This document shows, piece by piece, positions 1 to 42,510 of a DNA stretch of 64,000 bases. The notes beneath the pieces are model-generated. The model was not told the origin of the DNA. It searched no databases and was given only the letters and a program-made list of their open reading frames with translations. Position 1 is the stretch's first letter. Each line of letters begins with the position of its first letter. Both the position numbers and the translations under genes were made by a program. The stretch comes from Verrucomicrobiota bacterium (GTDB taxonomy: Bacteria > Verrucomicrobiota > Verrucomicrobiia > Limisphaerales > UBA9464): positions 4,350 through 68,349 of the forward strand of contig JAFLEF010000037.1 of assembly GCA_017309115.1 (NCBI GenBank), written 5' to 3'.

Positions 1-311
1 TTGACACGCACCGCCAAAGGCACGGTGTATTCGAGGTTGTTGACGAAATTGTAGGGATCGGCTTGGGCTTGGGCAGAGCTGCTGGTGAACAGGCGGAGCC
101 GAACGCAGTTCAACCCCCGGGCGCGCAGAAGAGTCGGTGCGTCACCAGCTTGACCCGCTTCGCGATAGACGATTCCGCGATCCTCGAAGAAGCGGAGGTG
201 CGAGAGATCAGCACCGGCGAGGAATTCCCCGGCGTTCAACCTCAAACCAGAAAAAGCCGTGACCGTTAACACGGCCACGGCCAACCACCGGATGACGAGC
301 AACCCGTTCAC
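1..311 (-). CDS. Glycoside hydrolase family 53 (arabinogalactan endo-beta-1,4-galactanase), N-terminal part; gene runs off the left edge
   Basis: My own minus-strand translation; it is absent from the ORF track because it is truncated. GTG at 311 gives MNGLLVIRWLAVAVLTVTAFSG (signal peptide), then EFLAGADLSHLRFFEDRGIVYREAGQAGDAPTLLRARGLNCVRLRLF...DPYNFVNNLEYTVPLAVRVK. This resembles the GADxSxL...GxNxVRLRxW N-terminus I recall for GH53. GTGA overlap with the stop of the upstream gene at 308. Confidence 0.55.
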   Translation of the reverse strand, partial: MNGLLVIRWLAVAVLTVTAFSGLRLNAGEFLAGADLSHLRFFEDRGIVYREAGQAGDAPTLLRARGLNCVRLRLFTSSSAQAQADPYNFVNNLEYTVPLAVRV

Positions 312-1603
312 AGGCTAAACAACCGGAACAACGCTGAACTCGCCCCGACTTCAAGCGTGACCGAGCCCTGCCCTTGAGTGTTGGGGACATCCTGCCAAAC
401 CGCACCATTGAGGCTTCCGGCCGTCTGCAACCGGATCTGGGGGCTGGCCGTCCAAGTGATGGTGATCTGCCCGTTCGTGGGCTGGCTGATCGTGATCGGG
501 CCCAATTGATTCACGTTGTTGAAGTATACCAACGGCAGGGTTTGCGGATCGGTGCTGGCCAGCGAGAAGACTCGGTTGTCGGCTCCGTTGGGTCCCACAT
601 TGACTTCCCACGTCGAACCATTGAGGACGAACTTGTAGTAGAGAACCGCGCCCGCAGTGGTGGTGAGGTCGAAGGTGCCAGTCCAGACGTTGGGATTCGA
701 CTCGCTCCGGTTCAGGATCGAGGCGGTGGGGTTCCAATTGTTCAGCAGATCCCCCGCGACCGAGGCCGTTCCCAGTTCCGGGTCGAAGGTGCCCTGCGCG
801 ATGGGAATTGAGAGATCAACTTGGAAGGTGAGCGGGACAATCGACGGAACGACGGGGAGGTTGTTGAAGTACACCGGCGGCAACGTCTGCGGACCGCTGA
901 CCAGGGTCAGTTGACGGTTTTGGGCTCCGTTCGCTCCGACGTTACCCTCCCACGTGCTGCCGTTCATAACGAACTTGAAAGCAACTCCGCTGTTAACGGC
1001 ACCCGAGAGTGTTTGAGTACCTACCCAAAGGTTGGGATCCGATCCGCTGCGGGATAAGGGGGACGCGGTGGGATTCCAGCCATTGAACTCACCCGCCACC
1101 GTGACCGTGTCGGATTCCGGGTTGAAGTTCCCCATCTCCGTTTGAACCGACATGTTGACTTGGAAGGTGACGTCCGAGGTCACGGCCGTGCCGCCGCTGA
1201 CGTTGTTGAAGTAGACCACGGGCAGCGTTTGATCCGTGTCGGAGATTGTCAGGGTACGGTTTCCGGTGCCCCCACCAGTGCCAACGTTCCCCTCCCAGAC
1301 CTGGCCCGTGCCCGTCGCCAGGAGGAACTTGTACTGCCCGGTTTCGCCGGCCGTGCCCGAGACGTCATAAGTGCCGACGAAAATGGAAGGATTACCGGGG
1401 CTGGGAGTGAGCGGCGACTCGGTGGGACTCCAGCCATTGAGAGGATCCCCAGCGACGAAGACGCCGTCGGTGGCTGGATTAAAGGCGCCGAGCGCGGTCT
1501 GCACCGACAGATCCACCTGGAAGGTGACCGGAGCGGCGACGGTGGCGGTGACGACGGTCGCCAGCAAACATCCGGCGGCGATCAAACGGGTTAAGTGATT
1601 CAT
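308..1603 (-). CDS. Secreted protein with four tandem ~100-aa CBM20/E-set-like carbohydrate-binding repeats and a C-terminal FRL-type module
   Basis: ORF 308..1627 (GTG). The ATG at 1603 gives MNHLTRLIAAGCLLATVV, a signal peptide. Four repeats follow the pattern (V/L)TFQV(D/N)(L/M)S(V/I)...G.F(N/D)P..(D/G).(V/A).VAG..NGW(S/N)PT.S.L......NP..(W/F)(V/T)GT...(Y/F)KF......WEGNVG...NR. The protein ends SSALFRLFSL. Confidence 0.6.
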   Translation of the reverse strand: MNHLTRLIAAGCLLATVVTATVAAPVTFQVDLSVQTALGAFNPATDGVFVAGDPLNGWSPTESPLTPSPGNPSIFVGTYDVSGTAGETGQYKFLLATGTGQVWEGNVGTGGGTGNRTLTISDTDQTLPVVYFNNVSGGTAVTSDVTFQVNMSVQTEMGNFNPESDTVTVAGEFNGWNPTASPLSRSGSDPNLWVGTQTLSGAVNSGVAFKFVMNGSTWEGNVGANGAQNRQLTLVSGPQTLPPVYFNNLPVVPSIVPLTFQVDLSIPIAQGTFDPELGTASVAGDLLNNWNPTASILNRSESNPNVWTGTFDLTTTAGAVLYYKFVLNGSTWEVNVGPNGADNRVFSLASTDPQTLPLVYFNNVNQLGPITISQPTNGQITITWTASPQIRLQTAGSLNGAVWQDVPNTQGQGSVTLEVGASSALFRLFSL

Positions 1604-1804
1604 AGAAGGAATTTCTTCTCTGTACACGAGACCCGTCGGAAGTCACTGGTGGGAATTTTGGGAACGTTTTCTTTTGCGTTCTGTCCGGAGTTGTTTCGGT
1701 GCGCTAGCGATTGGCCAGCCGCGAGGACGGTGCAAGTTCGCGGGTCGCTGGCAGGTAAACTTTTGTTCACTTGCTGACGGCGACCTCTTCCGCAGGATTT
1801 CGCG

Positions 1805-6250: not shown

Positions 6251-8416
6251 TCACTGCGGTGACACTCGGAAAAACTCAGGATTCCCACCAATGGCACCTG
6301 GTTCTGGCAAAGGCAAGTCAGTGGTCCCGATCGGAAGATCCTCCGTCGCGACGGGCGCCCAAGTCTTCAGATCCAATGACCGCTCCAAAACGACACGCTG
6401 CGGACGGGTAGCTTGAATGCGCAGCTTCTGCGGTCCCGCCCCCGGATCGGGCAACGCCGTTTGCAAAGGAGGCGACATCTGGGCGTTCAGGGTGATCCAG
6501 AAATCAGAGCTCTGATTGGAATCCACCACGAGATAGTAGGTGGTTCCTGCGGTCGCCAGGAAACGCCGCGGTGAGATGCTTTCGGAGGTCAACCAGTCTG
6601 GAAGGGCATTCGGTGCCGCCACTAAGGATTCCGTCGAATCCCCGTGAAGCACGCGCAGTCGGGGTGGCGTGAAGGTGGTCGTCCAAGGAACCAGCGCGGC
6701 ATGCACCGGCCCCGTCACCGGTGATGTCCAGCGCCACCAGACCTCCGCGCGCTCCGAAGTCAACTCGCCCGTGGCTCCCACCAAGGTCCCGGGCACCGAC
6801 ACAAATAGGCCTTCGATAACAGTCGCCTGGGCAAAGGCGTCATTGGCTGGTGGTCGTGTAAACAGATCCTCTACCGGAAACCGGAGCTGAATCTTGAAGT
6901 CGCCCTCGGTCGGAGCATTGGCCCCAACCTGGATGTAGTAGAGCACCCCCGCCTGCACCCGGAAGGGAACCCGGCTGCTGGTATCCGTCTCGGAACGGTC
7001 GTCGTTCTGACCTCGCACCACGCGGGGGTTGTTGGTGAACACCGAGAGCACGGTGTCCCCCGTCACTTCGGAGGTGCTCACTTCCGCCAGACCATCGGCG
7101 GGAGCGGTCCACTGGTACCAAACGGAGTTGGTGCCGCCAAAAGTTACTTCTCGCGCCGGCTGGTCACCGGTGGCGCCCCGGGTCGTTCCAGCCACCGCCG
7201 GGGCATTCGCCTCTAATACCTGCGCATTGGCAAAGGCGTCATTGGCCGGGGCGGGAGCACTGGGTCCCGGAGTCCACGGAGTCGTCCGGAAATTGAACAT
7301 CAAATTCCCAACATCCCGATTCGTGAGCGCAAACGCGTAGATCTGAAACGTCTGTCCCAACCGGGCCTCAAACTTCAGCCGACTCCAGGGCGTTCTCAAC
7401 GGATCATCCTCGCTACGCACCACCGGCGTTTGGGGTTTTCCAGCGTCTACCCGATTGACCTGCAGGGAGGTGTCGAAGGTGCTGCCAAAAGTATCTACAC
7501 TAACCAACCGGTCGGCCGGAGCCGTCCACAGGAATGAGTAACACGAAGCAATGGAAACCGACGGAAGCCGACCCAACTGAAACTCCGCCAGATCCGACGA
7601 AGCCCGCCGCAAGTCCACCACCAGCCCCTCCACGTCGCCCGTCAACCGGATCGGATTGAGCGGATCGTCACCGGGTGCCGGCCGAAGCTGCGTCAACCGG
7701 ATCGTCTGACGCGTCAACCCGTCGTCGGAATCCCGGGCGGACACCCGCAAATCGCTGGGTGGCCCAAAGAAGTCGTTCACCTGAAAGTCATAGGGAGGTG
7801 CCGTCTTGACCGCCAACGTCCGGTAGCGATTGAGCCCCGCCGGTGACGTCTCCAAAACAACTTCCACAATCGTTCCGTCGGGATCCACCACGGTAACCGG
7901 CAGGAGGAAGTTGACCGGCGCCGTCCAGTTTCCGGCCTGGGGTTCCCCAACGACCATCTCCGGGTACGCATTGAGTCGGATGACCACCTCGGAACTGGCA
8001 TTCGTGGCTCCCAAATTATCCACGGCCACCGCGGTCAGCCGATAGGTTCCGGGAACCACCGGGGCGAATGAGAACGGGAACAAGTCCGGACGGCTCCCCG
8101 GAACCGGCGGCGGGAAGAGCGGCGGCGGAAAGACCGTCGCAAAATTGGTCCCGTTGGCCCAGTACTCCACCCGGGCCACTTTGCCGTCGGCATCGGAAGT
8201 GACCGAAAAGAGCTGTACGCTCCCAAACCGCAGCAGCACCTGATTGGTCACCCCGGACCAAGTCACGGAAGGAGCCTGGTTCTCCACATTAGCCGGCACC
8301 CGAACACGGGTTCGGACCGAGGGTTCGGCGGCTCGAAGGGGATGACTTCCAGCTCCGAACCCAATGAGCCCAACCAAAACCAGAAACACCGCGGACCAAG
8401 AAAATCGAGTTTTCAT
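6251..8416 (-). CDS. Secreted protein with Ig-like domains, three pre-peptidase-C-terminal-like (PPC-like) repeats and a C-terminal FRV module
   Basis: ORF 6251..8497. The likely ATG at 8416 gives MKTRFSWSAVFLVLVGLIGFGAG, a signal peptide. Three PPC-like segments occur; two begin with an NDAFA.A motif (PANDAFANAQVL...SVWYQWTAPADG and PANDAFAQATVI...WWRWTSPVTG) and a third shows only the (W/F)LWTAPADR-type core. The protein ends NPEFFRVSPQ. Confidence 0.7.
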   Translation of the reverse strand: MKTRFSWSAVFLVLVGLIGFGAGSHPLRAAEPSVRTRVRVPANVENQAPSVTWSGVTNQVLLRFGSVQLFSVTSDADGKVARVEYWANGTNFATVFPPPLFPPPVPGSRPDLFPFSFAPVVPGTYRLTAVAVDNLGATNASSEVVIRLNAYPEMVVGEPQAGNWTAPVNFLLPVTVVDPDGTIVEVVLETSPAGLNRYRTLAVKTAPPYDFQVNDFFGPPSDLRVSARDSDDGLTRQTIRLTQLRPAPGDDPLNPIRLTGDVEGLVVDLRRASSDLAEFQLGRLPSVSIASCYSFLWTAPADRLVSVDTFGSTFDTSLQVNRVDAGKPQTPVVRSEDDPLRTPWSRLKFEARLGQTFQIYAFALTNRDVGNLMFNFRTTPWTPGPSAPAPANDAFANAQVLEANAPAVAGTTRGATGDQPAREVTFGGTNSVWYQWTAPADGLAEVSTSEVTGDTVLSVFTNNPRVVRGQNDDRSETDTSSRVPFRVQAGVLYYIQVGANAPTEGDFKIQLRFPVEDLFTRPPANDAFAQATVIEGLFVSVPGTLVGATGELTSERAEVWWRWTSPVTGPVHAALVPWTTTFTPPRLRVLHGDSTESLVAAPNALPDWLTSESISPRRFLATAGTTYYLVVDSNQSSDFWITLNAQMSPPLQTALPDPGAGPQKLRIQATRPQRVVLERSLDLKTWAPVATEDLPIGTTDLPLPEPGAIGGNPEFFRVSPQ

Positions 8417-8775
8417 CTGAGACCATCCAACGGTCCGCGAAGTCGCGTTGAAAGCAACTGTAAACCTGACGAAACCGAAGTTCCACCCCGACCCCAAGGC
8501 CGGCCCACTTCACGGAATTCCCCGCTGCCTTTCCGCGTGGTGGGACCCGGCGGGATCTTGATTGCCCGCCAGACCGCCCTGCTCAATTGAGCGGTCGTCA
8601 CCGCAGAGTTCCCCCGAAACTGGGGAATTGAGTTCCAGATCTGGGTAGCGATCTCCTGAAACAGGTCGTCCTGATCAGTGGGCGTGAACGCGTAGGCGCG
8701 AACCACCTTAAAGATCAACCCCCGATGTTGGGCCAACCAGTCGTCAAACGTCCGCTTTTGCTTTTCCTCGTCCAT
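8413..8775 (-). pseudogene. Truncated ECF sigma-70 family gene (region 2 only)
   Basis: MDEEKQKRTFDDWLAQHRGLIFKVVRAYAFTPTDQDDLFQEIATQIWNSIPQFRGNSAVTT looks like ECF sigma region 2.1-2.3. After about residue 75 the frame becomes low-complexity R/G/P-rich text and overlaps the start of the next gene. No region 4 or HTH is found in any frame. Confidence 0.4.
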
Positions 8776-8965: not shown

Positions 8966-10546
8966 TCACCGCTCCAACCGGACCTCATGGATCGTTTCCG
9001 GCTGCGGGTCAGCCTGTTCGAAGTACTTCCTGAACTCTTTCGCGGCCGGCCCCGAACCCCGTAGCAACCGTTCCACGGACTCCGGCGGAACACTTTGATA
9101 CCACAAGGTCACCACCGCCTCGACCTTTCCAGACGCAGCGCCCAGATCCATTCGATACGTCACCGTATCGCTGCCACTGCCGGCTGCGTTGAAATTTGCG
9201 TCCCGTGCTGCAGCTCCGTGGATGGCGATGTTCGCCTCGTCCGGTCCACCCTTCCGAAACCCGAGGGGCGGCAGACGGTTGTCCTTGAGGTACCGCGTTG
9301 CGCGCAGCAATGAACGGGTCGGTTGTCCCGCCATGTCGCCCATGACCGCCTCGTAGATCTGCACCTGCTCCGGCCGGGTGATCAGATCCAGGTGCTCAGA
9401 ATGTCCGTCCCCTGCTCCGCGAATCCGGCCTCGCTCGTCGGTCGCCCCGGATTCGAACACCGTCTTCCCATTCGCGTCCTGAACGCGGACGTGGAGCCAG
9501 GCCCTCCGATACGGAAAGCCAGTGGGAAACTTGTGTCCGGCGAGGTTCTCTACCAGCACGGTCAGTTCGAGCTGCTGTCCTACGCGCTGACCTTGAACCG
9601 TAAGCGTCGCCGCCTTCTGCAACTGACGCCGGGTGTGGGCGATCGATTGATCGAAGTCCGCCGGACTGGCGTTGGCCTGAAGGGCCTCGGCGTTTTCCTT
9701 CAGCATCGTGAGCAGGAACGCATTTCCACCCACGAACTGGTGTCGCCAAAAAGGCGCCCGCGGCTCCAGCCAAGGAGGTCGCGTGCTCACCTGGGTCGGC
9801 TCATCGATGCGCGGCATGTGGCAGTCCTGACAGTGCTTGCCGCGTTCGGCGTACACGCTGTTGCGCCACTCCAGATAAGGAACCTGTTCGGGGAACTGAC
9901 CTGTGATCTCCCCCTTGGCATCGATAATGGGGGTGAACAGGGTGTGGCAGGTCGCGCACAACGCCGAGTCTTGCGTGTGCGCCCCAAACTTCGGCGTGTA
10001 GTTGACGTGATTCTGCATCGGCCGCGTGAAGACGTCGTCATACGGACCGAATATCTCCCGTGCCCGGCCGATCTCGAAGTTGCCCGTGAAGCTGGCGGCC
10101 TGACCCAGATTCTTTGGTTGGATCTGATGACACACCGTGCAACTGACCCCATCGCCCGCCAGCGGCAGGGTTTTCGCCTGAGCCAGGGAAAGTTCCTTGA
10201 GTCCGTCTTCGCGCGACTGAGTCCGAGCCATGGGCGCGTGACAGGTCAGACACTTGTTCTCGATGTATCCCTTGAGTTCTGGATGTTCTTCGACCTCCAC
10301 TTCGACCACCGCCCGCCACAGCGGATCCTTGAAAGAGTGGGACATCATGGTGGCCCGCCATTCCCCCACGAGGGATACCTTGGACCGCTCGGACGAATCG
10401 GCCGAGGGGTCGTGGCAAAAGGCACAGTTGGCCGAACCGCTGAAGAGCGTCGACGTGGCCTCGGTCAGTTCGGCTGCTGACGCCATCCCCCACCCGAATG
10501 CGATCAACCCGAGAAACCACCGACTTCCCAAGGCCCAGAGTTTCAT
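8966..10546 (-). CDS. Secreted pentaheme c-type cytochrome with a large non-heme C-terminal domain
   Basis: Signal peptide MKLWALGSRWFLGLIAFGWGMASA. Five CXXCH motifs: CAFCH, CLTCH, CTVCH, CATCH, CQDCH. The last ~250 aa carry no heme motif. Confidence 0.85.
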   Translation of the reverse strand: MKLWALGSRWFLGLIAFGWGMASAAELTEATSTLFSGSANCAFCHDPSADSSERSKVSLVGEWRATMMSHSFKDPLWRAVVEVEVEEHPELKGYIENKCLTCHAPMARTQSREDGLKELSLAQAKTLPLAGDGVSCTVCHQIQPKNLGQAASFTGNFEIGRAREIFGPYDDVFTRPMQNHVNYTPKFGAHTQDSALCATCHTLFTPIIDAKGEITGQFPEQVPYLEWRNSVYAERGKHCQDCHMPRIDEPTQVSTRPPWLEPRAPFWRHQFVGGNAFLLTMLKENAEALQANASPADFDQSIAHTRRQLQKAATLTVQGQRVGQQLELTVLVENLAGHKFPTGFPYRRAWLHVRVQDANGKTVFESGATDERGRIRGAGDGHSEHLDLITRPEQVQIYEAVMGDMAGQPTRSLLRATRYLKDNRLPPLGFRKGGPDEANIAIHGAAARDANFNAAGSGSDTVTYRMDLGAASGKVEAVVTLWYQSVPPESVERLLRGSGPAAKEFRKYFEQADPQPETIHEVRLER

Positions 10547-10714: not shown

Positions 10715-10807
10715 GGTAGGGCGAGGTTCCACCGAGCCGTGCGCGTCTCGGCGAATTGGCGCGAGTGGACTTCCCACGGGAACGGCTCCGCAGAACTTCG
10801 CCCTACC
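10715..10807 (+). repeat. REP-like palindromic element (family GGTAGGGCGAGGTTCCACCGAGCCG...CGCCCTACC)
   Basis: The termini GGTAGGGCGA and TCGCCCTACC are inverted repeats. Internally, ggttccaccgagccgt pairs imperfectly with acggctccgcagaac. Related copies lie at 14489, 24737 (inverted), 42430, 52812 and 52983. Confidence 0.8.
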
Positions 10808-10851
10808 GAGGGAAGAACTGCCTTCAAACGGCACCCGCCCGTTCTGGTCTA

Positions 10852-11006
10852 CCCACAAACCAGTTGAGAGTTGAAAGTCGAGAGTTGAGAGAAAAGATCT
10901 GAATTCCAGCACGTTAGAAATGCCGATGGGTTTGTGGACACAATGCAGATCCGGTTCACCGGTTTTCGCTCCTCTCAACTCTCAGCTCTCAACTCAACTT
11001 TCAACT
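10852..11006 (+). repeat. MITE-like element with heptamer-array inverted arms (copy 1)
   Basis: The left arm cccacaaacc + (AGTTGAG/A)n and the right arm (CTCAACT)n flank a conserved ~85-bp core, ...gaattccagcacgttagaaatgccgatgggtttgtggacacaatgcagatccggttcaccggttttcgctcc. It is near-identical to the copies at 14611 and 24484 (inverted). Confidence 0.8.
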
Positions 11007-11011: not shown

Positions 11012-11794
11012 CTATCCCCGCCGGCAGCGCAGACGGTGCCCACCCAAGAAGACCCCCATCACTCCCAATCCGAACAACGCCCAAACCGACGGTTCCGGCA
11101 CCGCTGTAACGCCCGCGAACTGGAAGTTTCCGACATCCTTCCCTTGGTCAGCCGGCGTTCCCAGTAGGAAATTCGCCACTTCGAAACTGACCACCATGTC
11201 TCCGGAAATGGTGAGCGTGTTCCCCGCAGTGCCGGTCGTCACATTCACCAAGTCAAACAACGTTCCGGCCGGGGCAATGTTGCCCACCAAATGCCAACCG
11301 CTGCCACCGACCAACAGCCGAGTAGCATCATACGCCAGCGTAAAGTCACCGAAGACCAGTTTCCCTCCGCCCAACAGCGGATTGACCGTCCACCGGGAAA
11401 TCCCGCCGAGTCCAATGACTCCCGTGTGGCTAGTAAGGTTGTCCGGCGAAAACTGGAAGGTCGTGGGCTTCGCCGTCCGACCTGCCAAGTTGGAGACCTG
11501 CGCGCCGTTTAGCGCATAGGTCAATCCTGTGTAGGAAGGCGAAGCTTGGACCTCGTCCGCGAGAATCTGCGCGCCGGTTCGCGATGCGGCCCCCGCCTGG
11601 TCGAAGGTCTCGTCGAGGGTAAGCGCTTCGAAGCCCGGCACACTCGCCCCGCCGGCGAGGCTATCCCAAGCCGCCTGATGAAAATCTATCGTGGCCTGAC
11701 CGGTCACCAAAACGTCCGCCCGGGCAGACGTAACGGCGATGGCGACCCACCAAGCGGTGGCCGCGACGGTTCGAAAACGGGGCAAAGACTTCAT
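11012..11794 (-). CDS. PEP-CTERM-anchored secreted protein (paralog A)
   Basis: Signal peptide MKSLPRFRTVAATAWWVAIAVTSARA. The C-terminus VPEPSVWALFGLGVMGVFLGGHRLRCRRG shows PEP motif + TM + basic tail. The body is paralogous to 11946..12845. Confidence 0.8.
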   Translation of the reverse strand: MKSLPRFRTVAATAWWVAIAVTSARADVLVTGQATIDFHQAAWDSLAGGASVPGFEALTLDETFDQAGAASRTGAQILADEVQASPSYTGLTYALNGAQVSNLAGRTAKPTTFQFSPDNLTSHTGVIGLGGISRWTVNPLLGGGKLVFGDFTLAYDATRLLVGGSGWHLVGNIAPAGTLFDLVNVTTGTAGNTLTISGDMVVSFEVANFLLGTPADQGKDVGNFQFAGVTAVPEPSVWALFGLGVMGVFLGGHRLRCRRG

Positions 11795-11945
11795 ACCAAT
11801 TAGGGCAGATCCGCGAGGACGGGCTCGTGTCGGAAGACTCAGTCTTTACGGATGAGGGTTTCTTCCATCAAGGACTCAGATCGATTCCCGGTGTGGCATT
11901 TTGCCGCAACGTGAATTCGGGCGGGGATCGGCATGTTCCCGAACC

Positions 11946-12845
11946 GTGAAGTCCCTTGCGCCGCTGCTGGCGTTCCTGTTTTCAGCCGGATCCCGGATCC
12001 ATGCCGCCTCGTTGTCCACGGGCACCGCGTTGATGGACTTCGATCGCACCGCCTGGGACGCCCTTGCGGCCGAGATTGGTTTGCCCACACCAGTGTTGAC
12101 TCTGGACTCATTCTTCGACGCCGACGGAGCGACTGCGAGAAACTACAATCAAATCCTGCGCGACCCCTCCACCAACGCCATTTACACGGGTCAGGTCTAT
12201 CGGATGAATGGCAGTACCGTGACCAATCTGGAAGGCCGCACCTCCCAGCCCACCACCTTCTTCTTCACTCCGGGAAATCCCAGTCAGCACACCGGGGCTA
12301 TTGGTCTGGCGGGAATCGCGCGGTTCGCGGTCAGCGGCGGAGGCTCCCTGCTGTATGGCGATTACACACTGCAGTACGATGCCGCCCGAATCGCCCGCGG
12401 CGGGACTGGCTGGTATCTGAAAGGCAACATTCCTCCGGTCGCCCCCGCCTTTGATCTCCTCCAAGTCGCGCTCGAGGAAACCGCGTCAACCCTCCGACTG
12501 ACCGGAGATCTGGCCGTCACCTTTGAACTGGCCCATTTTCTCTACAGCACTCCAGCCGATGCCCTCCGGGTGGTGGGCACCTTCGAATTCACTGCCGGGA
12601 TCGCCGGAGTCGCCACACCACCCGCGCTGCGCGAATTCCGGGTCGTCGACGGCTCGCTGATCTTGCTCGGGACCGGATCCCCGGGAGGATCCTACACTCT
12701 CGAGACGGCGACGAACCTGGAGTTGCCCGCCCTCTCCTGGAGCCCGGCGGTGACCGGCACCTTTGATGCGTTGGGGAATTCGTCGAACTCGCTACCGGTT
12801 CTGCCGGCCGACTCGGTTCGCTGGTTCCGACTGCAGCAGCCATGA
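11946..12845 (+). CDS. Secreted protein, paralog B of the PEP-CTERM protein, carrying a C-terminal FRL-type module instead
   Basis: ORF 11901..12845 (TTG). The GTG at 11946 gives VKSLAPLLAFLFSAGSRIHA, a signal peptide that parallels paralog A. Shared blocks include GRTSQPTTFFFTPGNPSQHTGAIGLAGI and GDYTLQYDAARIARGGTGWYLKGNI. The protein ends SVRWFRLQQP. Confidence 0.75.
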   Translation: MKSLAPLLAFLFSAGSRIHAASLSTGTALMDFDRTAWDALAAEIGLPTPVLTLDSFFDADGATARNYNQILRDPSTNAIYTGQVYRMNGSTVTNLEGRTSQPTTFFFTPGNPSQHTGAIGLAGIARFAVSGGGSLLYGDYTLQYDAARIARGGTGWYLKGNIPPVAPAFDLLQVALEETASTLRLTGDLAVTFELAHFLYSTPADALRVVGTFEFTAGIAGVATPPALREFRVVDGSLILLGTGSPGGSYTLETATNLELPALSWSPAVTGTFDALGNSSNSLPVLPADSVRWFRLQQP

Positions 12846-13600
12846 GGTGGAGTCGTTCCAATGCCAACCGACTGGCCTTCACGCTCGTCGAACTGTTGGT
12901 GGCCCTCGCCATCATCGCTGTGCTGGCTGCCTTGCTGCTGCCCGGGTTGGCGAGGGCGCGTCAGAACGCCCGCCGAATCGTGTGTTTGAACAATCTTCGT
13001 CAATTCGTGGTGGCCGATACGGTGTATGCCCACGACCACGGCGAACTGCCGGCGCCCAATGCCTTCGTTCCCAGCACGCTGAGCGTCCCTCGTCTGACAA
13101 CACTCGCGACCGAACTGCGAATGCCGATTCCCCCGGGTCCTGCCGGCACCTGGCCGAAACGTGCCGCCCAACCCAAGTGGATCAATTGCCCGCTCGCCGC
13201 AGAATCGGGTCTGGCCGAAGGTGTCGTGCTGGGGGGCGGACTCTACACGGGCTACGCCTACTACGGCGGTCTCGAGGAATCCTCAATGGTGACGAATGGT
13301 TTCGCCCGAGTGGTGAATCCGGGGCAGGCTGCCAATCGCTTGAACACGCGACGCGGTGTGCTCTGGACCGATGTTCTCGACGAATTCGCCACCAGTGATC
13401 CCCGCCGCTTCGAATTCTTCCACGTCCGACGTCGAGTCCAGTATCCCGATTTCCGCTTCCACGCCGAAGAACTCGAAGGAATTCATCGAGCCTGGTCCGA
13501 TGGATCCGTGGAATGGGTTCCCGGACGGCGGATCATGTTGACCGGGCCCACCAGTCCGGACTGCCGTCTTCAGCATCTGCTCGGAAATTACTACTTCTAA
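12842..13600 (+). CDS. Prepilin-type N-terminal cleavage/methylation domain protein (DUF1559-like pseudopilin)
   Basis: The N-terminus LAFTLVELLVALAIIAVLAALLLPGLARARQNARRIVCLNNLRQ is a class III signal/pseudopilin motif. ATGA overlap with the upstream gene. Confidence 0.85.
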   Translation: MRWSRSNANRLAFTLVELLVALAIIAVLAALLLPGLARARQNARRIVCLNNLRQFVVADTVYAHDHGELPAPNAFVPSTLSVPRLTTLATELRMPIPPGPAGTWPKRAAQPKWINCPLAAESGLAEGVVLGGGLYTGYAYYGGLEESSMVTNGFARVVNPGQAANRLNTRRGVLWTDVLDEFATSDPRRFEFFHVRRRVQYPDFRFHAEELEGIHRAWSDGSVEWVPGRRIMLTGPTSPDCRLQHLLGNYYF

Positions 13601-13620
13601 ATACCCGCTCATTCTCCCCC

Positions 13621-14484
13621 ATGAATCCTCCCGTCTCCACCCTCTCGCGCCGCGAACTCCTCCTTCAATTGTCCCTTCTTTCGGCTGCGAGCGGTCTGAG
13701 CGCCGCTTCCAGTCGGGCTGCCGAGACTGCCTCGAAGGACCATCTGCACGGTCCCCAGCCCCAACTCCGCATGGGATCAGAGAAGATCGCCATCCTAGTG
13801 TATCCGGAGTTCACGGCCCTGGATGCCATGGGGCCGCACTACCCACTCGCCGGCATGATGGGCGCCTCAGTGCAGTTTGTGGCCAAAACCCTCGACGTCG
13901 TCCCCGCCGAGGGAGCCAGTCGGGGTGGCTTCTGTGTTAAGCCGCAGCTGACCTTCGAAAGCTGTCCGGCGGATCTGGATCTGCTGCTCGTTCCGGGCGG
14001 GATCAAGGGAACGCTGGCCGCCATGCAGGACAAGGCAACCCTCGACTTTCTGGCAGACCGCGGAGCCAAAGCCAAGCGGGTGGGAAGTGTTTGCACCGGC
14101 TCCCTGGTGCTAGGCGCGGCCGGACTGTTGAAGGGCCGTCGCGCCACCAGCCACTGGCAGACGTTGTCACTCTTGCGCGACGTCGGAGCCACTCCGGTGG
14201 CCGAACGCTTCGTGTTCGACGGCGACACCTTGGTGACCGCCGCCGGAGTCAGCGCCGGACTGGATCTCGGGTTCGAACTGGTTCGCCGGTATCGGGGCGA
14301 CTTCTATGCGAAGGGGGTCCAACTGCTGGGCGAATACGATCCCCAGCCGCCCTTCCCGGGCGGGGGAAATCCGCGGACGGCCGATCCGTTGACCGTCAAG
14401 ATGCTGGACGAGATGCACGTCCCCCTTGTGGACATGTTTCGTCAGGCCTTGGAAGTGGCGAAGGCGGTAAGCGGTAAGCGGTAA
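13621..14484 (+). CDS. DJ-1/PfpI family protein with a Tat-like signal
   Basis: The ATG at 13621 gives MNPPVSTLSRRELLLQLSLLSAASGLSAASSRA (twin-arginine motif). The nucleophile-elbow region GSVCTGSLVLGAAGLLKGRRATSHW is typical of DJ-1/PfpI. Confidence 0.85.
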   Translation: MNPPVSTLSRRELLLQLSLLSAASGLSAASSRAAETASKDHLHGPQPQLRMGSEKIAILVYPEFTALDAMGPHYPLAGMMGASVQFVAKTLDVVPAEGASRGGFCVKPQLTFESCPADLDLLLVPGGIKGTLAAMQDKATLDFLADRGAKAKRVGSVCTGSLVLGAAGLLKGRRATSHWQTLSLLRDVGATPVAERFVFDGDTLVTAAGVSAGLDLGFELVRRYRGDFYAKGVQLLGEYDPQPPFPGGGNPRTADPLTVKMLDEMHVPLVDMFRQALEVAKAVSGKR

Positions 14485-14488: not shown

Positions 14489-14568
14489 GGTAGGGCGAGC
14501 GGTGCGCCGCAGCGAATTGACGCCAGTGGACGCCACACGGGAACGGCTCCGCAGAGCGTCGCCCTACC
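14489..14568 (+). repeat. REP-like palindromic element (copy 2)
   Basis: GGTAGGGCGAGcggtgcgccgcagcgaattgacgcc...cacgggaacggctccgcagagcgTCGCCCTACC. Same termini and internal blocks as 10715..10807. Confidence 0.8.
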
Positions 14569-14610
14569 AGTGCGTCGCCTCACCGGTGCATCGCCCGGGT
14601 GGGTATTTTT

Positions 14611-14776
14611 CTCTCAACTACCCACAAACCAGTTGAGAGTTGAAAGTTGAGAGTTGAGAGAAAAGACCTGAATTCCCGCACGTTCGAAATGCCGATGGGT
14701 TTGTGGACACAATGCAGATCCGGTTCACCGGTTTTCGCTCCTCTCAACTCTCAACTCTCAACTTTCAACTCTCAAC
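14611..14776 (+). repeat. MITE-like element with heptamer-array inverted arms (copy 2, best preserved)
   Basis: A small hairpin, ctctcaact-acccacaaacc-agttgagag, comes first. Then follow (AGTTGAG/A)x4, the conserved core, and (CTCAACT/TTCAACT)x5. As at copy 1, it sits directly after a REP-like element. Confidence 0.85.
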
Positions 14777-21510: not shown

Positions 21511-24378
21511 TCAGGGTTGGGTCAGTCGGAAGTAGGCGGGACCGGCACCCACCGGCAGGGTCACTGTCTTCTGCCCGCCTTGTTCCACTGGGGTTCCGCC
21601 GGCTGCACTCCAGGTGCCACCCAAGGAACCCGCCGTCTCCAACGTCGCCGCTGCGGCCGAGGCCGGCCAGGACAGGGAAACGTTGGATCCACTCAGCGAA
21701 ATGGCCAGGGGCGGCGGAGCGACGGGTGCCAGGTGGGACGAGGTGATCTGCAGGGCTGCCAGAGACGTCGCCGAACCATTGTTAAAGGCCACCAGGAACT
21801 GGCCCGCCGCCGGCGAGTAGTGGATGACATGATCGTTCGGACCGGTCCCGATCGGCGTGCCCGTGTCCGTCAGGAACAAGGCCGTTCCCAGCTGACTCGG
21901 CAGCGGTCGTCCGTCTGGCCCCAGCAGCGTGACCACATAAGCATTGGGCAGGCCCACGGCACTGCCGAAGGCCTGATGTCCCAGGGCAATCACGCCGCTG
22001 ACCGGATCAGCGGCGAATTGCGGATGCTGATGGTTGAACGGGTTGCCGGAGGTACCGGCCAAGTACGGAATCTCCGGACGAATGGACGTGAACGAGTACG
22101 CGGGAGCCGGACCGATATTGAAGTAGGAAAGATCGCCGATGGCCGTCCCGTTGCCGCCATCGTACGCCGTCAGCAACTCGCCGTTGAAGGGATTCAGGAA
22201 CGACGCCGGATGACCTTCCGGAACCGGCGTCCCGTCGCTCAATACCTGCTCGACCGTGGACCGCAGTTTACCATCCGCTCCCGGAGTGGTCTGGACTACA
22301 GCCCCCACAATCCGATTGCTCAGAACCCCGTCCGATCCGTTCGAGTTATCGGTGTTCGTGACGTAGAAGAACACATCCCGACCCGGCAGATAAATGACGT
22401 CCGGATCATCCTCGTCCCCGACGCTCTGCAATCGGTCGAGCCGGGTGAATTCCGGTGTCAGGAGAGTCCCGCTCTTGTCGAAAAGCACACCCACCGCGCC
22501 TTCGCCTTCGCCGGTGAAGCTGTACTCCGCCGCCAGCAGGATGTTGCCGTTGACCGTACTGACCGCTACCGCGAGGTCATCAAAGTTCGAAGTTGTCTCC
22601 GGCATGAACGCCGCTGTCCGCGCCACCGGCGAACCGGTGCCCGCCGTCGCCAGCGGATTCACCAACGCGATTCGCGGGACGTGATTTCCCGTCGGGCTCG
22701 ACGCCCGGGCATTGGCCACCACCACGTATTGCCGGGTCACCGGGTTGAACTCGACATCCACCTTCGAGAAGGCGCCGGCGGAGTTCCCGAAAATGCTGAA
22801 GGGCTCACTGGTGGGAGTCAGCGTCCTCGGGTCATAGAACCGACCCACGACGGCGGCCGTGGCCGGTTGCGAAGTGAGTTCGTCTGTCGCGGCAATTACA
22901 TTGGCCGTGTCGATGGTCACCACCAGCACCTCGGGCTCCGTGGAGTGAACGCCTAACCCGGCATCACGGGACAATACGCCTTCGCCATTGACCACGACGG
23001 GCGCCACGTCGCGCAACCGCGGCCCGGCCGGGGGTGCGAGCGGATTCGTAAAATCCACCCAGGCCACGTAGAAATTGGCGTCCGTCAGATCCGCGGTGGT
23101 GTCTCCAGTCGTCTTGCGCGACTGGATCACGAACTTCCCGTTCACGAACTCGTACGAGAGGAACGCCCGGGAGGCCAGTGGCACTGACGTTCCCGCCTCC
23201 AGATCGGCCACTTGAAGCAGCAGCATTCCATCGGCGCCCGTCTTGCCCGGCAGCGTCAGTTCATAAACCCCCGTGCCGGTTCGGACCACGGCGAAGTCGC
23301 CCACGGCCTTTCGCTTGGCACCCGAACTTCCCACAATGTGGCCACCCACGAGGCGCTGGGAATCAAAGGGCACATAGACAAATTGGAACTCCGATTGTCC
23401 TTCCGGAACGAGTGTCTCGGCGTCCGTGGCCGCGTCTTCGCGAATAGTAACCAGCCAACCGGAACCATCTTCTTTCGGCGCGACCCCCACCACATTCACA
23501 TCGCTTCCGCCATCAGAAGAAGAGGCGAAGATCATTCCGTCCTCCAGGGCATTGACTCCGGGCAGCGTCAATTCAGCCCGACCTCCGAAGGTTCCCGAAC
23601 CCTCCGGAAATCCCGGCCAACGGACCAGTCCGGCGGTGAGTCCGCTGGCATGCGCCTCCGGCGACGACCACCGACTGGTGCCGTCGGGGATCACGCCGTT
23701 GGGATCTCCCACGATCGGTGCTCCCACATCGCCCCCCAGCCAGCCCTGATCAAACGGAAACCAAGCCGTGGAGAAGGCAAAGTTGGCCTCCGGACTGGAC
23801 GCATGTGTCCCGGCCCGACCGGTGTTGATGTCCAGATCGCCATTGGCGAAGGAGCCGTCGTTCATGCTGTAGGACGGCCCGGAAGACGCCCAGGAGACCG
23901 CCACCGTGGGAAAGAGCGGTCCTTCGCCATCGCCCCAATCCACCGGTCCGTTTTGGCGTGCCGTGGGAATCACCACGCCGAAATTGCGGCTCGGCCGCCA
24001 AGCCTGACTGGCCGGAAGTGACACCGCACCGTCGCCAAACTCGATAAACCCCTGATTCAAGTTCCCCAACGCCGCCACTGGGTCTCCCGGCGAGAGTCGC
24101 AAGGCAAAGTCCCCGCGATTGTATCGATTCACAGTCCAACGAATCGGACCCTGACCGTCCAGGCCCGTGACCTCGACACTGCTGTTGAACGTGGTGCTCC
24201 CCTTCGCCAACACATTAACCCCGGTCACCGAGGTGTTGGGGAACGCTCCCGGCAAACCGCCGCCCTCGGGAACTGTGGGAGTCGGGCCGGCCGGCGCGCC
24301 CTGAAGCACTCCGGCCGCCAAAGCCACGCTGGTGGAGAGGGGAACTCTGAGAAGGCTGTGAATGGATTTACTCTTCAT
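21511..24378 (-). CDS. Large secreted hypothetical protein (955 aa) with a C-terminal FRL-type module
   Basis: Signal peptide MKSKSIHSLLRVPLSTSVALAAGVLQG. The composition is G/T/S/V-rich and beta-like. No family recognised. The protein ends GAGPAYFRLTQP. Confidence 0.7.
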   Translation of the reverse strand: MKSKSIHSLLRVPLSTSVALAAGVLQGAPAGPTPTVPEGGGLPGAFPNTSVTGVNVLAKGSTTFNSSVEVTGLDGQGPIRWTVNRYNRGDFALRLSPGDPVAALGNLNQGFIEFGDGAVSLPASQAWRPSRNFGVVIPTARQNGPVDWGDGEGPLFPTVAVSWASSGPSYSMNDGSFANGDLDINTGRAGTHASSPEANFAFSTAWFPFDQGWLGGDVGAPIVGDPNGVIPDGTSRWSSPEAHASGLTAGLVRWPGFPEGSGTFGGRAELTLPGVNALEDGMIFASSSDGGSDVNVVGVAPKEDGSGWLVTIREDAATDAETLVPEGQSEFQFVYVPFDSQRLVGGHIVGSSGAKRKAVGDFAVVRTGTGVYELTLPGKTGADGMLLLQVADLEAGTSVPLASRAFLSYEFVNGKFVIQSRKTTGDTTADLTDANFYVAWVDFTNPLAPPAGPRLRDVAPVVVNGEGVLSRDAGLGVHSTEPEVLVVTIDTANVIAATDELTSQPATAAVVGRFYDPRTLTPTSEPFSIFGNSAGAFSKVDVEFNPVTRQYVVVANARASSPTGNHVPRIALVNPLATAGTGSPVARTAAFMPETTSNFDDLAVAVSTVNGNILLAAEYSFTGEGEGAVGVLFDKSGTLLTPEFTRLDRLQSVGDEDDPDVIYLPGRDVFFYVTNTDNSNGSDGVLSNRIVGAVVQTTPGADGKLRSTVEQVLSDGTPVPEGHPASFLNPFNGELLTAYDGGNGTAIGDLSYFNIGPAPAYSFTSIRPEIPYLAGTSGNPFNHQHPQFAADPVSGVIALGHQAFGSAVGLPNAYVVTLLGPDGRPLPSQLGTALFLTDTGTPIGTGPNDHVIHYSPAAGQFLVAFNNGSATSLAALQITSSHLAPVAPPPLAISLSGSNVSLSWPASAAAATLETAGSLGGTWSAAGGTPVEQGGQKTVTLPVGAGPAYFRLTQP

Positions 24379-24483
24379 AGGTTAGGAAATTGGACACGTC
24401 TCCAATCAGTCGGCCAATCCCCCGCCACTGGCGAGTCTTCTTCCATGAACTCGCGGTTACGGTCCGCTGACGATTTCGCTCAG

Positions 24484-24632
24484 CCCACAAACCAGTTGAG
24501 AGTTGAAAGTTAAGAGGAGCGAAAACCGGTGAACCGGATCTGCCTTGTGTCCACAAACCCATCGGCATTTCTAACGTGCTGGAATTCAGGTTTTCTCTCT
24601 CAACTCTCAACTGGTTTGTGGGTAGTTGAGAG
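24484..24632 (-). repeat. MITE-like heptamer-armed element (copy 3, inverted, with both terminal inverted repeats)
   Basis: The core is the reverse complement of copies 1 and 2. The ends cccacaaaccagttgagag (24484..) and ctctcaactggtttgtggg (..24622) form a perfect 19-bp terminal inverted repeat. Confidence 0.8.
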
Positions 24633-24651
24633 ATACGCAATGGAATCGAGG

Positions 24652-24725
24652 ACGTTAGAGGTGCCGAAGAGTTTGTGGACGCAATGCGCACCGGTTCCCT
24701 GGTTTTGGTTGCTTTCAACCTCACC
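24652..24725 (+). repeat. Degenerate core of the MITE-like element (copy 4)
   Basis: acgttagaggtgccgaagagtttgtggacgcaatgcgcaccggttccctggttttggttgctttcaacc aligns with the conserved core, with many substitutions. It is head-to-head with copy 3. Confidence 0.6.
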
Positions 24726-24736
24726 TCTCCTCCCCG

Positions 24737-24816
24737 GTGGGGCGACGCTCCGCGGAGCCGTGCGTTGGTGGACTCCCACACGTCACCGCCGAGACGCGAA
24801 CGGCTCGGTGGAACCA
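24737..24816 (-). repeat. REP-like palindromic element (inverted, degenerate ends)
   Basis: ggtggggcgacgctccgcggagccgtgcg...gagacgcgaacggctcggtggaacc matches the reverse complement of 10715..10807. Confidence 0.7.
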
Positions 24817-24971
24817 ATTCCCGCTTCCGACCTCTCTACCACTGGTTCCTGGAGAGACATCTCCGCGAAACCAGTCCGGCACCGAAACTTCACCGTGGCG
24901 CGTTTGTCATCAGGTCGAACTCAGGATACCGAAGCTGCGCACTTTCGAACCGTCGTCTGCCAACTCTCCTC

Positions 24972-27900
24972 ATGCGCTCTGTCTTGACCTGTTTGCTGGC
25001 TCTAGGAGCCGGATACCCTCTCCATTCCGCGACGCAATTCCTCCATGGAATTGCCTCCGGCGATCCCGCTCCGGATTCGGTCGTCCTGTGGACGCGAGCG
25101 ACGCCCGACGCCGCCGGTCCAGTGACGCTAACCTGGCAGATCTCCACGACTCCTGAATTCACCACCACCCTGCAATCGGGAACCTTTCAGACTGATGCGA
25201 ACCGGGATTACACGGTCAAGGTCATCCCCACCGGACTCCAGGCCGGGACAACATATTATTACCGCTTCCTCGCAGACAACGGAGCGGCCGCCTCGGAAAC
25301 GGGCCGCACCAAGACGCTTCCGACGGGTGAGGTCGGCCAGGTGCGGCTCGCGGTGTTCAGTTGCGCCAATATCACCGCCGATCCGTTTGATGCGTATGCG
25401 AAGGCAGCCCGAATCGGGGACTACGATGCCCTCGTTCACACCGGCGACTACATTTACGAATACGGCTTGGGTGGCTATCCGGAGGCGGAAGGACTGGCCG
25501 AAGCCGTCGGCTTCGAACCCGACCGCGAGTGTATCACCCTCGAGGACTATCGCCTGCGCTACGCCCAATATCATCGGGCGCCGAAACTCCAGGCCGCCCG
25601 CGCTTCCGCGCCATTCATTGTGATCTGGGACGATCACGAAACCGCCAATGACGCCTACGCCGGCGGAGCGCAGAACCATTCGCCCGCCATCGAAGGTTCC
25701 TGGACCAACCGGGTGAGCGCAGCACTCCAAGCCTACTACGAATGGCAGCCTATTCGGGAACCCGCGAGCGGCGACCGACGGCAGGCTTACCGCTCTTTTG
25801 ACTTCGGCAATCTGGTTTCGCTGCACATGCTCGAAACGCGGTTGAACGCCCGGGATCTTCAGCTCGATCTCGCCCCGACCCAGACCCAGGCCGTCACACG
25901 CATCGGAGCCATTCTCGCCGATCCCACCCTGGTGGCGCAGTACGCCACCACCTACGGACTGTCGCCGCCCACAGGCCCCGGCGACACGGCTGGTATCACC
26001 GCGTTCAGCACCGCACTCGGTCCAATCGTGACGGCGGAGTTTGTCACCCAGAATGTGACCCAGATGTACACTGGTGATCGCAAGCTGCTGGGTGCGGAGC
26101 AACTCCAGTGGCTGCAGGGGCAACTGGCTGGATCCGGCGCCACCTGGCAGGTCCTGGGGCAACAAGTGCTCATGGGCAACATGACCATGCCCGCTGAACT
26201 CCTGATCGAACTGGCCAGCGGATCGGTCTCCCCGGCTACCATCGTCAAGTATCTCACGCCCGTGACGAAGCGCGCCAACGGGCTCCCTCTAACCCCGGCT
26301 GAGCAGGCCGTCCTCGCGAACGCGAATCCCCTGCCCTACAACTCCGACGCGTGGGATGGGTACGGTCGGGAACGCGAAACCGTCCTCCAGACCGCTGCCA
26401 GCCTGGGCAAGAAGCTGGTGGTCTTCGCGGGCGATACCCACAACGCCTGGTCCAGCACCCTGCGAACCTTCAGTGCCGGACCGGGAGTTCCCGCCGGTAC
26501 GGTGGCTGGCATCGAGTTCGCCGCCCCGGGCGTGTCCTCTCCGGGCATCGAACGTTACTTCCCGGGTCAGCAAGGAATTCTCCGCGACTTGTTTCTTGGC
26601 TACAGCCCGAATCTGAAGTTCGCCAACCTGGCCAACCGCGGCTTTCTGGATGTGACCTTCAAGCCTGACGGCGTGACCGCGAAGTTCTACCTGCGGGAAC
26701 GTTCTGCTGACCGCCGCCAGTGGCTGGTTGAAACCCTTTCTGGTCCTACGCCTTCGTCGATTTCCCAGAGCGCACCCACCTCCGAGAACGACAACTATCG
26801 GCTTCAGATCCTTCACGCCTCGGACATGGAAGCCGACGTTGTCACGCTCGAGACCGCACCTCGCTTTGCCGCCCTGGTAGATCGACTCGAAGACAATTCC
26901 GCCGTCGACGCCTCCATCACCCTGGCTGCCGGAGACATCGTCATTCCGGGCGCGTTCCTCTCCGCTGGCAATGATCCCTCCACCGTCGCCCCGCTGAAGA
27001 CCGTGCTCGGACTGGTGTTTAACTTTGACGCTTCCGGCGCCGCCACGGATCTGCGCGAAAGCGCCGGACGTCCCGACATCGCGATCCTGAACGCCATCGG
27101 CTTCGACGCCGCTTCAATCGGCAATCACGAGTTCGACCTCGGGCCGACCGAATTCGCCTCCATGATTCTCCCGGATGTCCGGTCCGGTGGATTGCCCCGC
27201 TTGCGCAACTACGGCGCCGCCTTCCCGCTCCTGAGCGCGAACCTCGACTTCAGCGGTGTTCCAACGGGCGAATCCGCGCTGGCTGCCCGCTCCACGCAAC
27301 AGATTCTTCCGGCCAGTCGCTTTGGAGCCAATCCCTCCACCGACGCCAGCTACGTCAGCACGGCGGCGGCGGACATCGCCCAGCATCCCAAACTCGCCAC
27401 CGCCACGATCATCGAACGTGGCACTGAGAAGATCGGAGTCCTCGGCGTGACGCCGCCAGACCTCGCCAACATTTCTTCACCCGGGTCCGTGCGGGTGACC
27501 GGTCCGCAGGGATCCACTGCCACCAGTCCGCGTACTTACGACATCGCCGCCCTGGCCGCCCATCTGCAACCCGTGATCGACGCGCTGCGCACCAACGGCT
27601 GCACCAAGATCGTGCTGTCGTCGCAACTGCAGCAGATCGACAATGAGAAGGCGCTCGCCCAAAGCTTGGACGGCGTGGATGTCATCGTCGCCGGCGGATC
27701 CGGAACCATCTACGTCAATGATCCCGCCAATCTTCTCCCCGGCGACACCGCCGCTGGCCGTTATCCATTCCTCACCACCGACAAGCTGGGCCGGACCGTG
27801 GCCGTGGTCAGCACCGAAGGCCAATATCAGTACCTCGGTCAACTGGTCGTAGACTTCGACAACGAAGGAAACGTACTGGGAGTTTCTGGCGATACGCTAC

Positions 27901-39063: not shown

Positions 39064-39326
39064 GCGTCGGGAACTGGCGACGGAAGACGATTCCCGGATG
39101 ACATCCATCACCGGGTCTTCTCGTAGCGGACTACGGCATCGCGGTGTCCGACCGGGGCCATCGGACAACAACACCGCGTCAAATTGCGCTTGGAGATTTA
39201 GTCTTCCCTCACCGCTGATTCGGCCGGTTGCACCTTTTGGACCAAGCGGGCACGGCCACCGGAATTTGTATGAGATTACGCGGCCAGGGCTCCTTTCGAT
39301 CCTCACCATCCCGCCGCTTCATCCTG

Positions 39327-42370: not shown

Positions 42371-42429
42371 CGCGTTGCGGGAAGACTTTCCCGCTTACCC
42401 CTCAGCTCCCCGCTCTCCGCTCCCTCAAT

Positions 42430-42495
42430 GGTAGGGCGAGGTTCCACCGAGCCGTTCCCGCGTGGAGTAGCGCCGCTCCATTTCGCCCGGACGCG
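42430..42495 (+). repeat. REP-like element, partial copy
   Basis: GGTAGGGCGAGGTTCCACCGAGCCGTTCCCGCGTGG... shares its first ~40 bp with the family. It lacks the closing GCCCTACC. Confidence 0.65.
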
Positions 42496-42510
42496 CCGAA
42501 CAAAGACTGC

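Follow-up and report, generated by a model that had tools for sequence, protein, structure and literature searches.

Why would a bacterium keep side by side two paralogous proteins that differ in their C-terminal ends, and what could the less familiar of these ends do? The question is raised by two divergently transcribed genes located in a 64,000-nucleotide stretch (hereafter the window, 64 kb) of contig JAFLEF010000037.1 from a Verrucomicrobiota bacterium of the order Limisphaerales (assembly GCA_017309115.1). The protein encoded by the first gene, paralog A, ends in a PEP-CTERM signal, and the protein encoded by the second one, paralog B, ends in a longer extension that we call the FRL-type tail or module (Table 1). 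A previous reading of the letters alone, called here the sequence-only reading, had interpreted the pair as a natural domain swap in which the FRL-type tail occupies the functional slot of a known sorting signal, and had taken the pseudopilin-like gene coupled to B as a hint of export by a type II or pilus-like route. Judged from the protein sequences, the two endings truly alternate at a single junction, nearly each family member having exactly one of them. The explanation that we favor for the whole, with a probability of about 0.6, is that the locus represents a single copy of an envelope cassette conserved in Verrucomicrobiota and probably serving in metal handling, in which the tails would set retention at the envelope.

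Two paralogs that diverge at one fixed point

Both open reading frames (ORFs) are present as the sequence-only reading described them, and all the matching peptide blocks that it quoted occur in the translations. In a BLASTP comparison, A and B share 46% identity over 238 amino acids (aa; E=7e-62); the paralogy is thus clear, and the mature bodies, previously put at ~230 aa, are shorter (~200 aa). The N-terminus of A reads as a signal peptide (MKSLPRFRTVAATAWWVAIAVTSARA/DV) and its C-terminus, VPEPSVWALFGLGVMGVFLGGHRLRCRRG, corresponds to a PEP motif followed by a hydrophobic helix and then by a basic cluster. As had been proposed, this end is a PEP-CTERM: it scores above the cutoffs of both Pfam PF07589 (25 bits for a cutoff of 20.7) and TIGR02595 (18.5 bits for a cutoff of 16). 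Paralog B does end in SVRWFRLQQP, its additional segment being of ~80 aa (residues 219–299 in the envelope of a hidden Markov model (HMM) match) instead of the announced ~90 aa. The ORF listed for B extends from TTG 11901 to 12845; since a conserved palindrome overlaps this upstream TTG and the identical database protein P0001 starts at GTG 11946, the latter is most likely the true start.

In the alignment of the family (alignment A1), A and B split directly after a conserved VGxFxF(T/A)(A/G) block, and the swap junction therefore maps to one fixed point. Beyond it, the PEP-CTERM forms continue with 2–4 residues and then VPEP, and the FRL forms with the ~80-aa module. No exosortase was detected among the scanned ORFs of the window, no sigma-70-like consensus promoter was found in the A–B intergenic region, and no plasmid match was obtained for B.

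Alternation of the tails across the family

A search with B retrieved 108 homologs, the named sources of which are all Verrucomicrobiota, plus one Nitrospira protein. The FRL-type tail is present in 74 of these proteins, always as a single copy, and a PEP-CTERM or VPLPA-CTERM in 30; none carries both, and the four that carry neither stop at the junction or ahead of it and seem to be truncated. All three endings, i.e., PEP-CTERM, VPLPA-CTERM (in the Nitrospira protein P0108) and FRL module, follow the same conserved block. The idea of a natural domain swap is well borne out by this fixed junction and by the 104 members out of 108 with one tail or the other. The pair with the same two tails has been kept in distinct Verrucomicrobiota lineages at 46–63% identity. 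About five switches between PEP-CTERM and FRL tails can be counted on a tree of the body domain, which is a crude neighbor-joining tree without bootstrap; the tail type thus tracks phylogeny for the most part, probably with more than one switch.

The sequence-only reading had suggested looking for other families existing in both tail versions. The second FRL-tailed family, that of a CBM48/CBM20 protein of the window, showed no PEP-CTERM variants: 113 of its 120 homologs are FRL-tailed and the remainder are degenerate or truncated. PF26349, listed for homologs of this protein and considered as a candidate family for the tail, turned out to be an N-terminal YoqH match.

The FRL-type module, a predicted folded domain

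The AlphaFold2 model of B, with a mean predicted local distance difference test score (pLDDT) of 89.6, comprises a beta-rich body (residues 21–220) and a separate tail of six strands (residues 227–234, 237–243, 249–255, 266–272, 278–284 and 293–297), the protein ending two residues past the last strand, WFRLQ. The pLDDT of the tail is 85–93 inside the full model and 79 when the tail is modelled alone, with the same strands both ways. According to these models, the FRL-type tail is a folded domain of Ig/FN3-like type. An independent HMM, for which terminal tails of public proteins were used, also matches the tail of B (28 bits, E=4e-8). Its fold matches detected by Foldseek are generic FN3/Ig-like only, with template modelling (TM) scores of 0.45–0.55 and, for the tail alone, all E>0.1. 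No family covering the module was found in Pfam and NCBIfam scans of B and of 40 tails, among which Pfam fn3 matched a single one, weakly (E=0.14). A profile search of PDB sequences with the tail gave nothing meaningful, and we found no description of the module in the literature. The B tail, predicted as a soluble beta-sandwich, does not present the motif, transmembrane helix and basic cluster of the tripartite sortase-type signals.

The module is widespread. With the tail profile, a word-indexed search for homologs yielded no more than four short fragments, but a profile of six tail sequences, searched against 1.84 billion proteins, gave matches at E≤1e-3 in 2,053 representative clusters. 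Copy number and position were counted in a local re-scan of the top 150 of these clusters, 147 of which were counted. The last copy coincides with the end of the protein in 129 of these 147 top matches and in 60 of the 63 single-copy proteins, the exceptions being fragments, non-FRL Ig arrays and one real case (P0117). Internal copies end in [FY][FY]RL, followed by a short Thr/Pro linker; because they share this end in tandem, 'FRL' is a motif belonging to the last strand of a domain that can be repeated, and not a linear signal. Terminal copies score higher than internal ones with the terminal-tail HMM by ~8 bits only (p=1e-4), and with this small gap we rejected, as a strong claim, the idea of a separate 'signal' subtype made of the terminal copies. 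The tail profile also matches canonical FN3 arrays, which carry 'YYFRV'. Three proteins from public metagenomes (P0109, P0113 and P0124) begin with a conserved domain of small size (…DDFAIDWF.IDGGGG…), after which four to six tandem FRL-type modules extend up to the C-terminus. Look-ups of the clusters to which tail-bearing proteins belong supplied neither names nor taxonomy.

The window itself contains six FRL-tailed ORFs, including B, at least five of them with a clear N-terminal signal peptide, and only one ORF ending in a PEP-CTERM. All six tails are matched by the independent HMM of public tails, with E-values from 7e-28 to 2e-3.

A conserved cassette with a prepilin-type and a DJ-1/PfpI protein

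The stop codon of B overlaps the start codon of the next gene in an ATGA, as had been noticed, and the product of this gene is a prepilin-type protein. It passes the cutoffs of the Pfam families N_methyl (29.2 bits for 21.2) and SBP_bac_10/DUF1559 (29.8 bits for 23.3) and that of TIGR02532 (24.1 for 16.3), and its leader, MRWSRSNANRLA/FTLVELL (…NRLA/FTLVELLV), is of class III, with A at −1, F at +1 and E at +5. It falls below the cutoffs of all GspG/H/I/J and ComG equivalogs (e.g., 24.3 for 88.85 with GspG). We found nothing relevant on the function of DUF1559 in the literature. The third gene of the cassette encodes a protein of the DJ-1/PfpI family (Pfam PF01965, E=1.3e-24) with a leader of twin-arginine type (SRRELLL) that gives a weak match to the twin-arginine translocation (Tat) region model TIGR02811 (E=6e-4).

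This organization is conserved. Wherever enough DNA is available, essentially every related locus combines one or two family genes with an ortholog of the pilin-like gene and the DJ-1/PfpI gene. In nearly all of these loci, the gene immediately after the family gene is the pilin ortholog (in L030 and L033, it lies 1–2 kb downstream), and the ATGA coupling is conserved. In Chthoniobacteraceae, it is a PEP-CTERM form that stands directly upstream of the pilin ortholog, which is 56% identical to that of the window. Since the ortholog thus also stands directly behind PEP-CTERM forms, the pilin linkage belongs to the body family and not to the FRL tail, and we infer that the body, and not the tail, has the pilin-like protein as its partner. 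The suggested type II or pilus-like export of B does not fare well in this respect, and assembly genes of type II secretion systems (T2SS) or type IV pili (GspD/E/F, PilB/C/Q) were found neither in the window nor in the annotated related loci.

The family genes themselves are arranged in several ways. A divergent PEP-CTERM/FRL pair is present in the window and in L001/L012, L011, L002/3, L004/5 and L025, and a tandem arrangement, PEP-CTERM gene first, in L018, L019 and L021. A single long protein with an FRL tail is encoded in L006, L013, L016, L017, L020, L022, L024, L026-29 and L037, and one or two PEP-CTERM forms without an FRL form in L008/L034, L030, L033 and L035. Some of the long proteins are ~500-aa fusions of two clear bodies with one FRL tail (P0003–P0016; loci L013 and L026); in other ~500-aa forms (e.g., L006, L027, L029 and L037), one clear body follows a divergent or undetected N-terminal copy. 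No PEP-CTERM partner is encoded near the fused two-body forms, in which the FRL tail is retained. In a genome scan, the hosts of the family corresponded to metagenome-assembled genomes (MAGs) of Limisphaerales (subdivision 3), Verrucomicrobiales and Chthoniobacteraceae, a few other labels probably being due to mis-binning. Two VPLPA-CTERM copies are present in L010, a Nitrospira MAG, where they lie in tandem between genes for a CCP_MauG di-haem peroxidase and an FGE-sulfatase-domain protein; no pilin-like or DJ-1 gene is present in this locus.

Neighbors were counted over 37 related loci, a set in which some entries are duplicates of a single contig. Copper-related genes recur among them: SCO1/SenC in 14+4 loci, a CusF-SCO1 fusion in 12 and HMA in nine, to which YHS, cytochrome c and MbnB/HvfC can be added as further copper-linked neighbors. 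Genes of this type were observed on the flanks of L002-L005, L006, L008, L013 and L018-L030. A two-component system (HisKA/response regulator), Trypsin_2 proteins and TonB-dependent receptors also recur near the cassette elsewhere.

The palindrome located upstream of B, in the region common to the two divergent genes, is probably the operator of some regulator. Its pattern occurs once in the window, for 0.07 occurrences expected, and exact copies were found in 10 related loci, in nine of which they lie upstream of a family gene (L001-5, L011, L012, L021 and L025), ~40–55 bp from the B-type gene or, in L021, upstream of the tandem PEP-CTERM gene. In L028, the match is ~3.7 kb away from the family gene, on its downstream side.

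The body domain could be assigned to no family in Pfam and NCBIfam scans of 51 family members, which also gave no HtaA match. Weak DUF1997 matches were obtained for 11 members (best E=0.015), NF038129 gave a partial match (22.8 bits for a cutoff of 65), and a search of PDB sequences with the body profile of alignment A1 returned nothing relevant. The best fold matches of the body are HtaA/HbpA structures (6jsc, 6jsa, 8smu and 9bcj), with Foldseek probabilities of 0.85–1.0.

Flanks of the cassette and other features of the window

In the window, the cassette is flanked by a gene for a five-CXXCH cytochrome upstream and by YaeQ downstream. The cytochrome gene lies on the strand of A, 466 bp downstream of it, and encodes 526 aa with weak matches to multihaem-cytochrome Pfam families; considered as a possible relative of the cytochromes found beside the cassette elsewhere, it proved unrelated to them, including to the Nitrospira CCP_MauG. 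An intergenic repeat of ~280 nucleotides (nt), dispersed in the window, is made up of a pair of long hairpin modules (GGTAGGGCGAGG...CGCCCTACC and AGTTGAGAGTTGAAAG...CTCTCAACTCTCAGC). Two of its copies, which have the same orientation and share 81% identity, exactly enclose the cassette formed by A, B, the pilin-like gene and the DJ-1 gene. Farther away, a urease operon (alpha subunit, gamma/beta fusion and UreD), with a urea-type ABC transporter downstream, contains an antisense match to the Rfam family 5_ureB_sRNA (106.6 bits, E=5e-27).

Table 1. Coordinates of the features discussed in the text (positions in the window, unless a related locus is named)
Feature	Position	Strand	Remarks
Paralog A	11012–11794	−	260 aa; ORF and translation
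A, signal peptide	11717–11794	−	
A, body	11111–11716	−	
A, linker and PEP-CTERM	11015–11110	−	
A, stop	11012–11014	−	
Control region common to A and B	11795–11945		Intergenic; sequence read
Palindrome TGTGGCATTTTGCCGCA	11892–11908	+	TGYGGCA-N3-TGCCRCA; 38 bp upstream of B start; candidate operator
Paralog B	11946–12845	+	299 aa from GTG 11946; identical to P0001
B, signal peptide	11946–12005	+	
B, body	~12006–12596	+	
B, FRL-type C-terminal module	~12600–12842	+	Predicted six-stranded Ig/FN3-like beta-sandwich; ends in WFRLQQP
B, stop	12843–12845	+	
Prepilin-type protein	12842–13600	+	N-terminal methylation signal, DUF1559-like; 252 aa; overlaps B (ATGA 12842–12845)
DJ-1/PfpI family protein	13621–14484	+	Probable ATG start 13621 inside ORF 13513–14484
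FRL-tailed ORF	308–1642		CBM48 protein
FRL-tailed ORF	6251–8509		
FRL-tailed ORF	21511–24381		
FRL-tailed ORF	24630–29342		PhoD phosphatase
FRL-tailed ORF	35422–39318		LamG/Ig/PA14 protein
Five-CXXCH cytochrome	8966–10546	−	526 aa
Intergenic repeat, ~280 nt	10733–11005, 14496–14776, 24494–24815		
Intergenic repeat, partial	42421–42496, 52825–53025		
Urease alpha subunit	55108–56886		
5_ureB_sRNA match	56376–56670	+	Antisense within the urease operon
Palindrome copies in related loci	L001 5947–5963, L002 5946–5962, L004 6050–6066, L011 4947–4963, L021 4091–4107, L025 3191–3207, L028 9597–9613		

What the tails may do

In the explanation that we favor, the cassette encodes two Sec-exported paralogs of a ~200-aa beta-rich domain, transcribed divergently from the common region with the palindrome, B being translationally coupled to a dedicated prepilin-type (DUF1559-like) protein, after which comes a DJ-1/PfpI protein exported by the Tat pathway. 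The bodies of A and B would act as a pair, as suggested by their fusion into a single protein in many lineages. The C-terminal appendage would then set how this pair is held at, or released from, the envelope: the PEP-CTERM form would act through an exosortase, and the FRL module as a folded domain for retention, spacing or targeting instead of a cleavable linear signal. Because the usual neighbors in other genomes are copper-related, the cassette would probably serve in extracytoplasmic metal handling, most likely of copper. Several observations weigh against this explanation. Neither copper genes nor the other recurrent neighbors are found near the cassette in this window. The resemblance of the body to HtaA is marginal (E ~1e-3, TM score of 0.57 normalized by the target for 6jsc/6jsa and 0.35 by the query, root-mean-square deviation of ~8 Å, without sequence support), and alignment A1 contains no invariant Cys, His or Met. 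On the side of the tail, tandem arrays of two to eight copies are present in 84 of the 147 top matches and 100 internal copies in 67 proteins, so that the module could be a plain structural domain; P0117 (2,462 aa) even carries its three FRL-type modules at the N-terminus (residues 20–239), followed by more than 2,200 aa.

These last observations lend themselves to an alternative that we hold to be possible, if somewhat unlikely, in which the FRL tail has no targeting role and serves for spacing or binding as an ordinary FN3-like domain, A being anchored, B being its soluble or secreted partner, and the terminal position being a habit of architecture. Besides the frequent tandem arrays and the N-terminal copies of P0117, the match of the tail profile to canonical FN3 arrays, the purely generic Ig/FN3 hits of Foldseek and the CBM48 family without tail alternation agree with it. 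Spacer domains of the ordinary kind, however, usually precede anchors, and in ~130 FRL-type proteins no domain or anchor signal follows the module, P0117 being the one clear exception. Moreover, a body lacking both tails is almost never observed, and the fused two-body forms retain the FRL tail, with no PEP-CTERM partner encoded nearby. The sequence-only reading would have been refuted if the tail were merely a domain also found internally in other proteins, and this is partly the case: internal tandem copies do exist, but the terminal bias is strong. The opposite alternative, close to what that reading had proposed, makes the FRL tail a true sorting or secretion signal replacing PEP-CTERM, with B leaving by a type II or pilus-like route that uses the coupled pseudopilin. 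It draws on the use of one junction by two mutually exclusive endings, the strong bias of the tail to the extreme C-terminus, its presence on window proteins as varied as the PhoD, LamG/PA14 and CBM48 ones, all with signal peptides, and the conserved ATGA coupling. We nevertheless consider it quite improbable: the pilin ortholog also follows PEP-CTERM forms, GspD/E/F and PilB/C/Q are missing from the window and the annotated related loci, the module is folded and tandem, with internal copies sharing the motif and only ~8 bits away from the terminal ones, and the tail has none of the sortase-type architecture of motif, transmembrane helix and basic cluster (PMC3237569). The notion that the FRL tail takes the slot of a sorting signal is therefore only partly retained, i.e., for the shared junction, the mutual exclusion and the terminal bias, and not for a linear or sortase-type signal, the module being folded and repeatable in tandem.

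A more speculative proposal, which we regard as a long shot, would make the FRL module the cargo or attachment tag of an undescribed pathway of outer-membrane translocation or surface retention in Verrucomicrobiota and perhaps other members of the Planctomycetes–Verrucomicrobia–Chlamydiae group, analogous to the C-terminal domain (CTD) of the type IX secretion system (T9SS); in a variant of this proposal, the exposed last strand may dock onto a partner by strand pairing. If this were true, the alternation with PEP-CTERM would be the first genetic evidence of the module filling the slot of a sorting signal. Finally, the adjacency of the two genes is the only point in favor of a recent local duplication with a tail due to chance read-through or misannotation. 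This possibility can be ruled out for practical purposes, as pair and tails are conserved across lineages at the identities given above, the tail is modelled with high confidence and an independent HMM matches it.

The locus is of interest in several respects. Little is understood of how Verrucomicrobiota and their relatives place proteins at the outer membrane or outside it, and the clean alternation, within one family, of PEP-CTERM with a very common terminal domain offers a testable handle on this question. The cassette represents a conserved and uncharacterized envelope system, which has a conserved palindrome resembling an operator and is recurrently linked to copper chaperones. Finally, one member of the large DUF1559 family of pilin-like proteins gains a specific genomic partner.

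Comparison with known systems

The haem-binding CR domains of the HtaA/HbpA proteins of Corynebacterium are the best fold match of the body, a marginal one with no sequence similarity. The pilin-like protein shares the class III leader and the N_methyl, TIGR02532 and DUF1559 matches with T2SS pseudopilins and type IV pilins, including the DUF1559 proteins of Planctomycetes and Verrucomicrobia; it differs from them in that it scores below the Gsp and Com equivalog cutoffs and is tied to the cassette instead of lying beside assembly genes.

The FRL module can first be compared with FN3 and Ig domains. Like them, it is predicted to form a beta-sandwich, with a conserved Trp in the second strand and a last strand of aromatic-aromatic-Arg-aliphatic type reminiscent of the FN3 'YYFRV'; it has six predicted strands and not seven. 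A T9SS is not known in Verrucomicrobiota. By analogy, the module resembles the T9SS CTD (Por signal) of Bacteroidota, which is also an Ig-like sandwich of ~80 aa found at the extreme C-terminus of varied proteins with signal peptides (PMC3237569). It differs from this CTD by its occurrence in tandem, whereas one distinct copy per protein would be expected of a domain of CTD type, and it matches no curated CTD model, nor does any CTD structure appear among the top 50 Foldseek matches.

The 'choice-of-anchor' names given to some NCBIfam domains follow the same logic as families with alternative tails. Alternative C-terminal tails on homologous bodies are a known pattern, described as a 'sequence suffix' for PEP-CTERM, LPXTG and GlyGly-CTERM, and the handling of PEP-CTERM proteins by exosortase is established (PMC3237569). 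Paralog A conforms to the latter system, with its signal peptide and its succession of PEP motif, helix and basic cluster, whereas B is altogether devoid of this C-terminal signal. The family described here resembles the alternative-tail families in having one junction followed by differing ends (PEP-CTERM, VPLPA-CTERM or FRL), and departs from them in that the third option is an ~80-aa domain, folded according to the models and without a curated model, in place of a tripartite signal. What is new is that the alternative tail is a very common terminal Ig/FN3-like domain not yet covered by any curated model, and that the pair belongs to a conserved and uncharacterized cassette with a dedicated pilin-like partner.

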